Shown in pieces: positions 17,545 to 61,427 of a stretch of DNA of 64,000 nt (the first letter of the stretch is position 1; the number at the start of each line of letters is the position of its first letter). The position numbers were made by a program, and so were the translations under genes. The notes beneath the pieces are model-generated. The model saw only the letters and a list, made by a program, of their open reading frames with translations. It was not told where the DNA came from and did no database searches. Source of the stretch: a virus (taxonomy: Duplodnaviria; Caudoviricetes); IMG/VR virus record IMGVR_UViG_3300025276_000033, positions 2,012-66,011 of that record. One strand, given 5' to 3'.

Positions 17545-17576
17545 TTAAATAAGAAAAGAAACAGTACAATATGAAA
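17545..17576 (+). promoter_or_regulatory. Late promoter TTAAATA plus leader; identical 32-bp copy at 18014-18045
   Basis: TTAAATAAGAAAAGAAACAGTACAATATGAAA occurs twice. Confidence 0.8.
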
Positions 17577-18017
17577 TCATTAAACGAATTCTTAAACGAA
17601 AGTTATTCGGGTCCTGAATCAATTAACTTTAAAAAAGAACTTGAATTAGGTTCTGACAATGTTTATGTAACATACAAATATAAAGGAAAAGTAGAAACGA
17701 TTTCAGTTCAAAGTAAACCATTAAAGTCATACCCAGAATGGGCAATAAAAAATGACAAAAAAATGTATAAAATTATAAATAAAAACGTAAAGGGAGTAAC
17801 TTTTAAAGAATCGGAAACATCTGGAATTGTAAGTCTTTTTTTAAAAGGAGAATTTGATATAACATTTGATGATTCATTATTGCATGGTAGTGGTAAAAAT
17901 AATAATTTGATGCTCTTAAGCGGTTTAGACGATTTTAATTCAGATTTAGTAATTAGATGTTCAACAGATTACTTAAAGTATGGTGATGTTACTTATCACG
18001 ATGATCCAGCAAATTAA
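17571..18017 (+). CDS. LNEFLNE-tagged putative internal head protein
   Basis: N-terminus MKSLNEFLNES. Confidence 0.7.
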   Translation: MKSLNEFLNESYSGPESINFKKELELGSDNVYVTYKYKGKVETISVQSKPLKSYPEWAIKNDKKMYKIINKNVKGVTFKESETSGIVSLFLKGEFDITFDDSLLHGSGKNNNLMLLSGLDDFNSDLVIRCSTDYLKYGDVTYHDDPAN

Positions 18018-18039
18018 ATAAGAAAAGAAACAGTACAAT

Positions 18040-18897
18040 ATGAAACACTTAAATGAATTTTTAAACGAAGCAAAGGATGTAGGACACTACGAAAGGATAG
18101 GAAATCAAACTATTGTTGATAGCAATTTTGTAAATTACAGTAAAGGATGCCTTCCGGATTCTGAATTAGTACATTTAGGTATGGGAGATTTTCAATTAAA
18201 AACACCTAAAGGTAATATAACTTTTAATCGTTCTGGTAAAATAGTAGGAATCGGTCAAGACTTTGTAGGTAGACCACATAGAGCAACTGATGACAAAGGT
18301 GGTAAAGTTCTTGAAGAATTAATAAAGGTGATGACTAAAAAGAAAAAAGCTGTATTAAGTATGGCCGGATTGGATGAATCTAAAAAACCAGTTACTGATA
18401 AATATGGTTGGCACATAAAACCTTTTTTCAAAGAAGGAGAAAAAGTATTGTATTATGGTGAACCAGCAGAAATATCGCGAGTACGTGATGATGGTAACAA
18501 AGTTACTTATGATGTGAAATATACTAATCAAAGAGGGTTTCAATCATTTGTTAACAATAAATCGGGCGAAATAAAAAAATTGAATGAAATAAATCAATAC
18601 ACAGGAGAAGCTGAAAAATCAGAAAAGTATTGGGATACTAAATTCAAGAAAGCAATTAAATTGTTTCCTACCTGGGCTGATGAAAAGGTTGATATAACAA
18701 ACGAAATTAGACAAGTTTATAACGAAAGAATATTAGATGTTACTAAAGGAGACAAAGGATATGTTGAACCGATTAGTAGATATGAGGGAGATGTTGAAAT
18801 TTATATTGAAATGTCAACTGACCTTTGGAATAAAATGAAAGGTGATGTTATTGCAAAAGAATATGCACTTGAAGATTATGTTCGTTGGCTTAAATAA
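18040..18897 (+). CDS. LNEFLNE-tagged putative internal head polyprotein
   Basis: MKHLNEFLNEA; internal LDES and LNEI sites. Confidence 0.7.
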   Translation: MKHLNEFLNEAKDVGHYERIGNQTIVDSNFVNYSKGCLPDSELVHLGMGDFQLKTPKGNITFNRSGKIVGIGQDFVGRPHRATDDKGGKVLEELIKVMTKKKKAVLSMAGLDESKKPVTDKYGWHIKPFFKEGEKVLYYGEPAEISRVRDDGNKVTYDVKYTNQRGFQSFVNNKSGEIKKLNEINQYTGEAEKSEKYWDTKFKKAIKLFPTWADEKVDITNEIRQVYNERILDVTKGDKGYVEPISRYEGDVEIYIEMSTDLWNKMKGDVIAKEYALEDYVRWLK

Positions 18898-18911
18898 AAT
18901 TAGATAAAATT

Positions 18912-19427
18912 ATGAAATCATTAAACGAATTTTTAAACGAAGCAAAGAACTATGGTACTAAAGTTGGTAATCTTAGTAAAAAAGACTTGGAATCTACTGA
19001 GGCACTTAGGGATGCACTACAAAGTAAAACCAAAAAAGGCATTGTAGATGATTACGAAGAAGGAAAAACTATGTTCGGTCAAGTATATCCATCTAGAGTT
19101 TCTATCTTTACTTATGGTTCATCACCTGATGATAGGGATGGTAGCAAAAAACTAGTAGAACTATTTGCAAAAGATGGTAAACTTTATCTATATGGATTCA
19201 GAGCAATAAGAGGTAATAAAATTAATGATGAAGCATTTAATGGTAGACTAAGAAACGAAACACCAGGTGGACTTTCTGGTACTGCTGATTACTTTGGAAC
19301 AGATAATAAAGGAATACAAATTACAACAAAACAATTAAATCAACTTTTAGGTATGATTGAAGCACAAGCAAGTGCCGAAGGACAAGCATTTGCAGACTTC
19401 TATAAAGATTGGAAAAATCCAGATTAA
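18912..19427 (+). CDS. LNEFLNE-tagged putative internal head protein
   Basis: MKSLNEFLNEA; TTAAATA at 18890. Confidence 0.7.
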   Translation: MKSLNEFLNEAKNYGTKVGNLSKKDLESTEALRDALQSKTKKGIVDDYEEGKTMFGQVYPSRVSIFTYGSSPDDRDGSKKLVELFAKDGKLYLYGFRAIRGNKINDEAFNGRLRNETPGGLSGTADYFGTDNKGIQITTKQLNQLLGMIEAQASAEGQAFADFYKDWKNPD

Positions 19428-19430
19428 GAT

Positions 19431-19703
19431 ATGAAACATTTAAACGAATTTTTAAACGAAGGTAAAGGTAACCACGATGAAATAGAATCTTTTCTAAAAA
19501 CAATCTTTAAGAAAGTTAGTAAAACTACAAATAGTGGAGTTACAGATTTTTATGGAGATGTTCCAATAAATAAAATGCCAAATTGGTCAGGTCCTCTAAA
19601 AGTTGTTGTTGGTCGTGATGGACTTTCTTCAATTGAAGGTATGGAAGATGAGGTATTTGATAAGGATGCTCTATTCAAAGAACTTACACAAATTACTAAG
19701 TAA
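19431..19703 (+). CDS. LNEFLNE-tagged putative internal head protein
   Basis: MKHLNEFLNEG. Confidence 0.7.
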   Translation: MKHLNEFLNEGKGNHDEIESFLKTIFKKVSKTTNSGVTDFYGDVPINKMPNWSGPLKVVVGRDGLSSIEGMEDEVFDKDALFKELTQITK

Positions 19704-19726
19704 AATAAAATACATACAATATTAAG

Positions 19727-59686: not shown

Positions 59687-59699
59687 AGATATAAAAATT

Positions 59700-60347
59700 A
59701 TGAGACACCTTAACGAATTTTTGAATGAAAGTGAACTTGATGTTTCAGCATTAGAAAAGGATTTAAAAAATTATACCCAAATGGACGGAGAGTGGAAATC
59801 AGAAAAGAAGCTCGATGATATTTTTAAGGATATTGACATTAATAAAATGAAAAAACAATATCCGGATATATTTGAAATAAATTCTAGTTTGAATAAACCC
59901 AGTGTTTACGCATTTAGAGGAACAACAAAAGACATAAAAGAATTAAAAGCCTTAGGAAATCCAGATGAACTATATACAGATGCCAATTTAGGAACTTTGT
60001 TACTTTGGAATAAACAAAAAATAAAAAACCATAGTGAAATTCAATCGGTTACTATATATCCAAATGTTGCAAAAGGATTTGCAGAAAATAGTAGTTCATA
60101 TAATTTACCAGAATTTGGAGGAGGATACGATTTTAAATCTCCGATACCTACTATTTATTTTATTCCGGTTAAAGAAAACAAAAAACAGCTGTTTATGAAT
60201 TATCAATATATGACTGAATTGAGCGGAATAGACGAAGGTGAATTCTTTCATAGTGGAAAACAATTCAAATCTGTTGATGTTGCAATAATATTTGATGAAT
60301 CACTTTATGAACACTTTGATAAAGAAGAAATAGAAAAACTAAAATAA
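59700..60347 (+). CDS. Tagged putative ADP-ribosyltransferase (R-S-E type)
   Basis: MRHLNEFLNES; YAFRG, QSVT....AKGFA and DEGE motifs. Confidence 0.55.
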   Translation: MRHLNEFLNESELDVSALEKDLKNYTQMDGEWKSEKKLDDIFKDIDINKMKKQYPDIFEINSSLNKPSVYAFRGTTKDIKELKALGNPDELYTDANLGTLLLWNKQKIKNHSEIQSVTIYPNVAKGFAENSSSYNLPEFGGGYDFKSPIPTIYFIPVKENKKQLFMNYQYMTELSGIDEGEFFHSGKQFKSVDVAIIFDESLYEHFDKEEIEKLK

Positions 60348-60353
60348 AATGAT

Positions 60354-60863
60354 ATGAAACCATTATCAACATTTAAAATGTCGCAAGAACTTGAATATCA
60401 TTTGAACAATGGTATTGGAATTTCTGAATGTGTATTTATGTACGGGTCTGAAAAGTTTTGTGATTTGATTATTGAAGTCAGAGAACTTTACAATGGTGGT
60501 AAACTACTTTTAGAAGGTAGAGATAAAGCAATTGCATCTTTGAAAACTGGAGAGAAAGCAATCTACGATGGCAAAGAAGTTAAACTACATTTACCTGACT
60601 ATGACAAAACTGCTGGAAAGAAACTTAGAGTATATTTAGATTCTGGAAAGAAAGATGAAAAGACCGGATTGCCTAAAGCAAACATTGTTAGATTCGGAGA
60701 CCCGAATTTATCAATAAAGAACTACGACAAAAAAGCTGCAGACAGTTTTCAAGCAAGAATGAATTGTGATGCTAAATCAGATATAAAGGCATCGGGATTT
60801 TGGAGTTGCAATGTTCACTTGTTTGCAAAACACTTAGGATTGAAATCAGACTATCCATGGTGA
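60354..60863 (+). CDS. Conserved T4-like phage protein
   Basis: AIYDGKEVKL...VRFGDP...SFQARMNC...GFWSC motif. Confidence 0.65.
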   Translation: MKPLSTFKMSQELEYHLNNGIGISECVFMYGSEKFCDLIIEVRELYNGGKLLLEGRDKAIASLKTGEKAIYDGKEVKLHLPDYDKTAGKKLRVYLDSGKKDEKTGLPKANIVRFGDPNLSIKNYDKKAADSFQARMNCDAKSDIKASGFWSCNVHLFAKHLGLKSDYPW

Positions 60864-60891
60864 TTAAATATATAAAATAAATTATAACAAT

Positions 60892-61137
60892 ATGAAAACT
60901 ATAAAAGAATTAAACGAAGGAAAAAAGTCAAATTTTAAGGAAGATGTAGCTGATATGATTGAGTTACTACAAAAATATGTTGTGGATAAATTAGGTGCAG
61001 ATGAACCTTACATACCAGAAGATGTCATTCCAGCAATTGCTGAAGAAATTGCTTTAATTTTAAATGCATCCTCAGCTACTTTTGCTAAACCGGGTAGTCC
61101 TGGAAATATAAGAGTAAATAAAAAAAGAAAGTTTTAG
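60892..61137 (+). CDS. Tagged putative internal protein (MKTIKELNEG)
   Basis: Tag; TTAAATA at 60864; 47-bp leader shared with the next gene. Confidence 0.65.
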   Translation: MKTIKELNEGKKSNFKEDVADMIELLQKYVVDKLGADEPYIPEDVIPAIAEEIALILNASSATFAKPGSPGNIRVNKKRKF

Positions 61138-61223
61138 AAAACCTAAACCAGGTAATATCTTTCAATAAGAAAAACATAAGAAACCCGAACTAATTCAATA
61201 ATATTAAAATAAATTATAACAAT

Positions 61224-61427
61224 ATGAAAACTATAAAAGAATTAAACGAAGCTAAAAAAGTTGATGCAGAGGATTTACCAAAAGGTTGGAACGATAAACT
61301 AGAGGCAATTTATAAAGAACAGAAAATGGACTATCTTGGAGCTTTTACCAATTACGACCCTACAAGAGAAGAGATATTAAAGAATGCAAAAGAAGAATTC
61401 AATAGATTAAAGAATCTATTAAAATAG
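61224..61427 (+). CDS. Tagged putative internal protein (MKTIKELNEA)
   Basis: Tag; duplicated leader. Confidence 0.65.
   Translation: MKTIKELNEAKKVDAEDLPKGWNDKLEAIYKEQKMDYLGAFTNYDPTREEILKNAKEEFNRLKNLLK

Follow-up and report, generated by a model that had tools for sequence, protein, structure and literature searches.

Why should about one gene in five on a fragment of a large phage genome begin with a version of the same short peptide, when the proteins behind that peptide are unrelated to one another? The question is raised by IMG/VR virus record IMGVR_UViG_3300025276_000033, which is 66,011 bases long and of which bases 2012-66011 were analysed as a single 64,000-base window (coordinates below are those of the window). 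CheckV puts the completeness of the record at 28%, implying a genome of ~240 kb, and the phage is related to T4. The peptide, M-K-x-(L/I)-N-E-F-(L/I)-N-E, is referred to here as the tag. Taken as a whole, the comparisons below suggest, with a probability of about two in three, that it is a capsid-targeting sequence (CTS) of the T4 type: a portable propeptide for loading proteins into the phage head and for their release by a protease.

An N-terminal tag that ends like the predicted head maturation sites

The shared tag is confirmed on 12 open reading frames (ORFs) that carry it in strict form, beginning M(K/R)x(L/I)(N/S)EF(L/I/F)N; all 12 of those named in the original prediction, which had been made from the letters and ORFs of this DNA, were recovered (Table 1). 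When all 64,000 bases are translated in six frames, the pattern [LIVM][NS]EF[LIFM]N occurs 12 times, always on the + strand and always at residue 4 after a start Met. The tag thus occupies ten residues at the extreme N-terminus, the location and length of a T4-type CTS. Within it, L or I at position 4, F at position 7 and L, I or F at position 8 are found in 12 of 12 cases and Glu10 in 10; the motif is doubled in tandem (LNE-F-LNE), with P2 fixed as Asn. An N-terminal (L/I/V)NE is present in 17 of 97 ORFs, as compared to 19 of 784 internal 22-residue windows (Fisher p 2e-8), and in 1000 within-protein shuffles the count averaged 1.95 and never exceeded 7.

Weaker forms of the tag extend the family. 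Six of the seven variants proposed originally are credible (32652, 37865, 40000, 44004, 60892 and 61224); the seventh, at 34062, is weak: it starts with TTG and has neither an aromatic residue at position 7 nor an (L/I/V)NE. Two further candidates were absent from that list: 28688 (MKEVKLNPINE↓D, the arrow marking the predicted cut here and below) and 38896 (MKEKEIVEKLNE↓K). With ATG-only gene calls, about 20 of 92 genes, or roughly one in five, are tagged: 12 strictly, 6 by a further N-terminal (L/I/V)NE and 2 by the skeleton only. Similarity does stop after the tag, as predicted: when the 19 listed proteins are stripped of their first 12 residues and compared all against all by BLASTP, no pair falls below E 0.1, the best being 0.11.

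The enzyme that would remove such a tag is encoded in the same window. The product of ORF 4032-5663 matches Pfam Peptidase_S77 (PF03420; 5.4e-13, 49.3 bits against a cut-off of 27) and the T4 gp21 structure 5jbl (E 6.8e-5). The candidate catalytic His and Ser, H72 of the ELDHP motif and S127/S128 of the HISSRAAG motif, fall inside the stretch aligned to 5jbl and are unchanged in 8 of 8 relatives. The scaffold part of the same polypeptide carries six (L/I/V)NE sites, at residues 164, 171, 410, 443, 451 and 494, two of which come immediately behind the protease domain (SSVNE↓SFGMLNE↓N). The scaffold motifs that had been listed for it (SVNES, MLNEN, KINES, SLNES, DLNEG and FVNES) are all present, as is GLNEN in the capsid protein. 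In 8 of 8 relatives no change is seen at three of the scaffold sites, E166-S167, I410/E412 and L443-N444-E445-S446.

In the major capsid protein, the sole (L/I/V)NE is at residues 48-50, where the end of a T4-like propeptide would be expected; the T4 propeptide is given as 65 residues in PMC5694885. The site reads LNE in six of seven close relatives and LME in the seventh, and the region around it shows a weak alignment (E 0.0044) to the stretch of T4 gp23 that covers its N-terminal propeptide. The residue that follows the Glu is small (S/G/A/N) in all 7 scaffold and capsid sites and in 14 of the 16 N-terminal ones, as compared to 8 of 19 other internal sites and a background of 0.24. Of 140 environmental copies of the tag among the matches listed, 93 have G, A or S at position 11, which was free in the search pattern, and 68 have Lys at position 12. 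Because a small residue follows the Glu in both, the tags and the head maturation sites share an extended motif. The terminal motif of the tag matches that of the head sites in sequence, as a shared predicted cleavage motif.

Further features of the head genes touch on this processing. The N-terminus of the protease-scaffold protein, MKDYLLIE (4032-4055), has M1, K2, L5, L6, I7 and E8 invariant in 8 relatives, and its L-I-E suggests N-terminal self-processing or self-targeting. A parallel LIE-9 motif has been noted in T4 gp21 (PMC9026906), and proteases of the T4 type are described as trimming their own C-terminus (PMC5694885). Just upstream of the window (-1231 to 337; G000:C1:780-2348, L101), a 522-aa ORF with six (L/I/V)NE and no Pfam or PHROG match may encode a further head or core protein that the protease processes. 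ORF 7489-8838, which comes next after the capsid gene and stands behind TTAAATA, encodes a protein of 449 aa, rich in Glu, Lys, Ala and Thr, with (L/I/V)NE at residues 68 and 434 and no family match; a core or decoration protein from which both ends are trimmed is one possible reading. A predicted complex of the protease-scaffold (8-row alignment) with the 90-aa 19431 protein scored 0.00, which is no answer and counts neither way.

Comparison with T4 and distribution in relatives

The T4 CTS is MKTYQEFIAE (PMC8442874), and gp21 removes it from IPI, IPII, IPIII and Alt (Mullaney and Black 1996, cited in PMC9026906 and PMC8442874). According to PMC9026906, residues 4 and 7 of T4 IPIII serve targeting while 8 and 10 serve processing, Asp10 stops processing but not targeting, and CTS lengths range over ~10-19 residues. 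The tag and the T4 CTS are alike in being N-terminal and ~10 residues long, in the skeleton M-K-x-(aromatic/hydrophobic)-x-E-F-(I/L)-x-E, in the hydrophobic-x-Glu end (the gp21-type motif), in preceding unrelated cargo and in the company of an encoded S77 protease of the gp21 family. The positions that they share, 4, 7, 8 and 10, are the targeting and processing determinants of T4. Several differences are equally clear: in the window, P2 is fixed as Asn, the motif is the tandem LNE-F-LNE, the cargo is not basic, the protease is fused to the scaffold, and the genes lie in several dispersed terminator-bounded islands. T4 also has a handful of tagged proteins, as compared to the ~20 genes in 66 kb of a genome that is 28% complete.

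Intermediate forms bridge the two. Relative G002, whose capsid protein is 62% identical, carries MKSYKEFLNE, MKGYREFLNE, MKSYKSFLNE and others. G001 is a canonical T4-like phage (162 kb, 99% complete) with gp21 (E 1.8e-89), gp22, gp23 bearing FLTEAEVGGDHGY, and gp24; it has exactly two tagged ORFs, MKTFNEFLNE and MKSFKEFITE. Because of these intermediates, the tag is read as the T4 CTS in a lineage-specific dialect, of which the copy number is the unusual part. The CTS itself is already known, and has been suggested to let T4-like phages load varied proteins (PMC9026906). What appears to be new is its scaling, by ~tenfold, in a distant lineage of large marine phages. In the literature searched, no expanded CTS family is described for uncultivated or large phages and the string LNEFLNE was not found in text; PMC2993671 mentions neither the CTS nor internal proteins.

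If the tag acts in the T4 manner, loading and release would likely involve: binding of the assembling scaffold core by the hydrophobic positions 4, 7 and 8, drawing the fused protein into the prohead; cleavage by the gp21-type (S77) protease after the Glu of (L/I/V)-N-E, before a small residue; and retention of the freed cargo in the head, from which it would most likely exit with the DNA at infection. The cuts made by the same protease would remove the capsid propeptide and dismantle the scaffold. Small cassettes, each made of a terminator, a late-type promoter and the tag, could be the form in which new cargo is gained or swapped. Core binding, cleavage, retention and injection, and with them any anti-host role, are steps that we infer.

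The tag is a viral feature. Scans with the back-translated tag pattern found 62 stretches in IMG/VR and at least 118 in metagenome contigs; among the matches listed from both there are 140 distinct complete tagged ORFs, with a median of 120 aa, in 76 body clusters. In prokaryotes (one genome each for 185,579 species, 596 billion bases), the same scan found 8 stretches, 4 of them deep inside long ORFs and 2 on one 31-32% G+C contig of a metagenome-assembled genome. The tag is not a cellular sorting signal.

Among the relatives, strict tags number 12 in the window record (66 kb), 7-8 in G005 (74 kb), 3-4 together with many variants in G002 (172 kb), and 0-1 in G004, G006 and G007 (36-81 kb). In G006 the capsid site reads LME, the one behind the protease reads LTE and the single tag is MKSLNEFLKE; a co-variation of P2 between tag and head sites was considered, and this one case is too thin to count. 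The best named relative of the capsid protein is in the uncultured 462-kb record LR756500.1 (43.5% identity), with Lak phages, Sphingomonas phage PAU and Tenacibaculum phages PTm1 and pT24 at 30-38%; closer capsid relatives, at 62-87% identity, are found in IMG/VR, all of them fragments.

Giant phages offer a second point of comparison. In phiKZ, 201phi2-1 and SPN3US, ejection or inner-body proteins bear long N-terminal propeptides that are cut after (A/S)-x-E (PMC5694885). These too are large phages with many head-internal proteins, gp21-related processing C-terminal to Glu and paralogues with conserved N-termini. Their propeptides, however, are mostly 80 to >120 residues long, belong to paralogous families and end in A/S-x-E, whereas the window has a short portable tag ending in (L/I/V)-N-E on unrelated orphans.

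Cargo, cassettes and alternative explanations

The proteins behind the tag were originally thought to include several enzymes. This is so for variant tags, which precede an ATP-grasp enzyme, a zeta-toxin-like P-loop kinase and a HAD/PNK-type phosphatase-like protein. On the strict-tag proteins, Pfam gave 0 of 12 matches and PHROG 1 of 12, which is weak and to a family of unknown function. For 59700, first suggested as a candidate ADP-ribosyltransferase, the homology search returned its own 99% cluster only, one mate in which is encoded on a 140-kb contig; a feature search in Atlas yielded viral clusters without names and a single weak lead, DUF4765 at 0.90, and the single-sequence AlphaFold2 model was unusable (mean pLDDT 33.1). 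Several tagged proteins have internal (L/I/V)NE sites. In 18040, the C-terminal module that follows the internal KLNE↓I is found in a relative as a stand-alone protein directly behind a tag (L005; G004), and the HAD-like 44004 protein, with its degenerate tag, has a strictly tagged homologue (L055). Module boundaries coincide with the (L/I/V)NE motif, and modules move.

The placing of most tagged genes behind TTAAATA was borne out: the motif is 4-35 nt upstream of 12 of 19 (11 of 18 in the called gene set, plus 59213), and it precedes 11 of 18 tagged as compared to 10 of 69 untagged + strand genes (p 1.6e-4). The typical distance is about 20 nt, and tagged genes without a TTAAATA of their own sit close behind another tagged gene. 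The companion claim, that structural genes share this arrangement, is right for the portal, the baseplate hub and the protease-scaffold; the motif is found too before the ORF that follows the capsid gene, but also before PhoH (22682) and a nucleotidase (46082). Because it precedes such non-structural genes, its late-promoter status is something we infer; the role is plausible by analogy with TATAAATA, the late-promoter motif of T4.

Islands of tagged genes are framed by hairpin terminators with TTAAATA immediately after, and their gene content is replaced between close relatives. These terminator-promoter cassettes are probably how the tag spreads, not why it is conserved. They resemble the PeSL promoter-terminator cassettes, which are linked to modular gene shuffling and to T4-type hyperplastic regions (PMC4122927, PMC2839356), in that a hairpin terminator and then TTAAATA flank islands whose content varies among relatives. 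PeSLs are non-coding regulatory cassettes, whereas the unit shared in the window reaches into the coding region as a conserved peptide.

This likeness raises the alternative that the conserved element is the DNA, a mobile promoter-leader cassette or PeSL-like recombination site, with the peptide a functionless by-product. Besides the island-flanking cassettes, it could draw on leaders that are identical in a few copies (the 26 nt before the ATG at 17571 and 18040; the leader and first codons at 60892 and 61224) and on the Asn codons of the tag (codons 5 and 9), which are AAC in 8 of 11 and 9 of 12 cases as compared to 0.30 genome-wide. The AAC bias, seen also in 71 distinct environmental tag copies, may avoid TTAAAT promoter-like words or reflect codon optimisation, and together with the identical leaders it hints at some constraint or history at the nucleotide level. 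The Leu codons, in contrast, are free to vary: at positions 4 and 8, TTA, CTT, CTA and TTG (ATA for Ile) are used in proportions close to those of the whole genome, the 71 environmental copies behave in the same way, and the DNA upstream differs among most tag copies. Since both are so, selection acts on the peptide. Moreover, among the matches listed the peptide is kept in 140 distinct ORFs from many contigs, it is always in frame exactly at the start codon, and the same motif lies inside the scaffold and capsid proteins, where there is no cassette. A DNA-only element is accordingly improbable, and the codon evidence also speaks against a translation-initiation enhancer, in which AT-rich, unstructured first codons would drive high expression. 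AT is abundant in the tag codons, the second of which is usually AAA; yet the genome is ~70% AT throughout, the amino acids are kept through synonymous changes, and capsid, portal and sheath, for which the highest expression would be expected, lack the tag. We give this last idea very little credence. About as improbable as the DNA element is a tag read by another machine, either as an N-terminal degron by which phage ClpP times turnover or as a leader that a modifying enzyme recognises. Directly after the tagged island 32652-35291, at 35470-36036, the window does encode a homologue of ClpP (Pfam CLP_protease, 1.7e-26), and ClpP is present also in G002 and G005. The 99% complete G001, however, lacks ClpP although it has gp21 and two tagged genes. 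Among the ~70 window proteins scanned, there was no ClpX-type unfoldase, radical-SAM enzyme or any other candidate for reading the tag. Moreover, neither a degron nor a modification leader predicts that the tag end, down to the small residue behind the Glu, should match the sites in capsid and scaffold.

The gravest doubt attaches to the final step, injection. The tagged proteins could be loaded and clipped and yet be disposable parts of the core, an accessory scaffold or the packing of the head, rather than effectors. In T4, the core proteins gp67 and gp68 follow the same protease and targeting logic and are then degraded (PMC5694885); the internal (L/I/V)NE sites in several tagged proteins, the lack of any recognisable enzymatic or anti-defence domain on the 12 strict-tag proteins and a cargo that is not basic like the T4 internal proteins would all fit such a fate. 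The diversity and fast turnover of the cargo, with 76 body clusters in the 140 ORFs among the matches listed and with island replacement, would better suit accessory genes in an arms race. The ATP-grasp enzyme, P-loop kinase and phosphatase-like protein on variant tags also sit poorly with disposable parts, and T4 IPI and IPIII are reported to counter host defence (PMC3012670, bioRxiv 2022.04.14.488369). A structural fate is unlikely on this balance, while clearly more credible than the other three alternatives.

Several observations weigh against the capsid-targeting reading or narrow it. Two strict tags lack Glu10, with Arg at 34348 and Asp at 59213, and the weak gp23 alignment puts the capsid LNE ~10 residues before the T4 site. 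The strict tag is found in 0 of 4 of the nearest named phages or assembled record (PTm1, pT24, PAU and LR756500.1); in PTm1, 9 of 451 ORFs have an N-terminal (L/I/V/M)NE and a shared tag is absent. Because the moderately related G004, G006 and G007 have 0-1 tags, the expansion is patchy or limited to certain genome regions. As to the promoter, TTAAATA is shared with PhoH and the nucleotidase, TATAAATA is not directly upstream of the two tagged genes of G001, and a gp55-like sigma factor proposed at 412-1152 has no match in PHROGs, PDB sequences or Pfam. Finally, T4 internal proteins are small and highly basic (PMC8442874), whereas the 19 cargo bodies are near neutral, with net charges of -14 to +6; the 140 environmental ORFs among the matches listed average +0.015 per residue. 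The lack of basic charge counts against cargo that resembles T4 internal proteins, not against the function of the tag. Taken in sum, the capsid-targeting part of the original prediction is favoured by the gp21-family protease, the match to the head-site motif, the T4 skeleton, the unrelated cargo, the virus specificity and the TTAAATA link; the cargo is not basic, enzymes are found only on degenerate tags, and the term effectors, as applied to the cargo, stays conjectural.

Gene content of the window and significance

The window has a G+C content of ~30%, and almost all genes are on the + strand. Its genes were named from PHROG and Pfam scans, with PDB sequences added for some, ~70 proteins being scanned overall. 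The features are collected in Table 1.

Table 1. Head and tail genes and tagged genes of the window; ↓ marks the predicted cut
Feature	Position	Strand	Remarks
Portal protein	2357-3973	+	538 aa; (L/I/V)NE absent; TTAAATA 20 nt upstream
Prohead (head maturation) protease fused to scaffold	4032-5663	+	543 aa; S77 gp21-type domain at ~residues 25-138; N-terminus MKDYLLIE
Major capsid protein	5701-7404	+	567 aa; single (L/I/V)NE, GGLNE↓NN, residues 48-50, predicted propeptide end
gp26-type baseplate hub	16484-17497		PHROG/Pfam scans
Strict tag, MKSLNEFLNE↓S	17571-18017	+	148 aa; no family match; opens terminator-bounded island
Strict tag, MKHLNEFLNE↓A	18040-18897	+	285 aa; internal KLNE↓I before C-terminal module
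Strict tag, MKSLNEFLNE↓A	18912-19427	+	171 aa; 96%-identical homologue in L015 likewise tagged
Strict tag, MKHLNEFLNE↓G	19431-19703	+	90 aa; closes island; terminator 19727-19752 follows
Tail sheath	24186-27287	-	PHROG/Pfam scans
Extra candidate, MKEVKLNPINE↓D	28688-29194	+	168 aa; N-terminus kept in relative G005
Variant, MKGLDIFRKELKGINE↓S	32652-34046	+	464 aa; zeta-toxin-like P-loop kinase domain; phrog_5268 match
Weak variant, doubtful member, MKSLKEHSEE	34062-34340	+	TTG start; no (L/I/V)NE
Strict tag, MKPLNEFFNR	34348-34659	+	103 aa; Arg in place of Glu10
Strict tag, MKPLNEFLNE↓G	34681-34959	+	92 aa
Strict tag, MKALNEFLNE↓G	34965-35291	+	108 aa; terminator 35406-35433 follows
Variant with T4-like skeleton, MKDYRQFLFE↓S	37865-38851	+	328 aa; ATP-grasp enzyme
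Variant, MKNVKDYNNLLNE↓GK (ending NLLNE↓G)	40000-40878	+	292 aa; internal VNE↓GK
Strict tag, MKALSEFLNE↓S	42406-42714	+	102 aa
Skeleton-only variant, MKKISSYITE↓I	44004-44615	+	203 aa; HAD/PNK-type phosphatase-like; L055 homologue strict-tagged
Strict tag, MRSLNEFLNE↓S	54770-55111	+	113 aa; hairpin and TTAAATA upstream
Strict tag, MKSINEFINE↓G	57820-58221	+	133 aa
Strict tag, MKPLNEFLND	59213-59686	+	157 aa; Asp10; next site KLNE↓G, residues 17-19
Strict tag, MRHLNEFLNE↓S	59700-60347	+	215 aa; orphan
Short variant, MKTIKELNE↓G	60892-61137	+	81 aa
Short variant, MKTIKELNE↓A	61224-61427	+	67 aa; leader and first codons identical to 60892

Other genes of the window encode a clamp loader, exonucleases, thymidylate synthase, PhoH, ClpP, an amidase, UvdE and C5 DNA methylases. 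The last are six tandem genes at 46863-52813, each matching Pfam DNA_methylase (C5 cytosine methyltransferase) at E 1e-40 to 1e-50, and no endonuclease was seen among them. Two adjacent putative homing-endonuclease-type genes at 42753-44020, T5orf172/MUG113 and GIY-YIG, lie between the tagged genes 42406 and 44004; the GIY-YIG match, at 21.9 bits, is just below the 22.6 cut-off. At 27565-28170 there is a sigma-factor-like ORF (phrog_1740, 2.6e-10), different from the gp55-like one proposed at 412-1152. The single tRNA gene, tRNA-Thr (anticodon TGT), is at 57500-57576 and is preceded by a ~620 nt stretch free of ORFs.

A broader picture can be drawn tentatively, at clearly less than even odds. 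A ~240-kb marine phage, probably infecting Bacteroidota, would give about a fifth of its genes, perhaps at least 50, to proteins that are loaded into the capsid by one 10-residue tag, released by the head protease and injected together with the DNA, and the same grammar of tag and cleavage site would serve as a joint at which cargo is fused, split and exchanged from phage to phage. Should the tag act as it does in T4, the proteins that uncultivated large phages inject could be read from sequence. Among the T4 internal proteins are a host-range determinant and one that inhibits a type IV restriction enzyme (PMC3012670, bioRxiv 2022.04.14.488369), and each tagged orphan would likewise be a candidate anti-defence or host-takeover protein of the first minute of infection. 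The whole would amount to a phage equivalent of an effector-secretion system, and the tag, close to that of T4, could widen the toolbox for protein delivery by phage capsids. The T4 CTS would then be an ancient portable signal, extending from coliphages to distant marine relatives of T4 and scalable by an order of magnitude.

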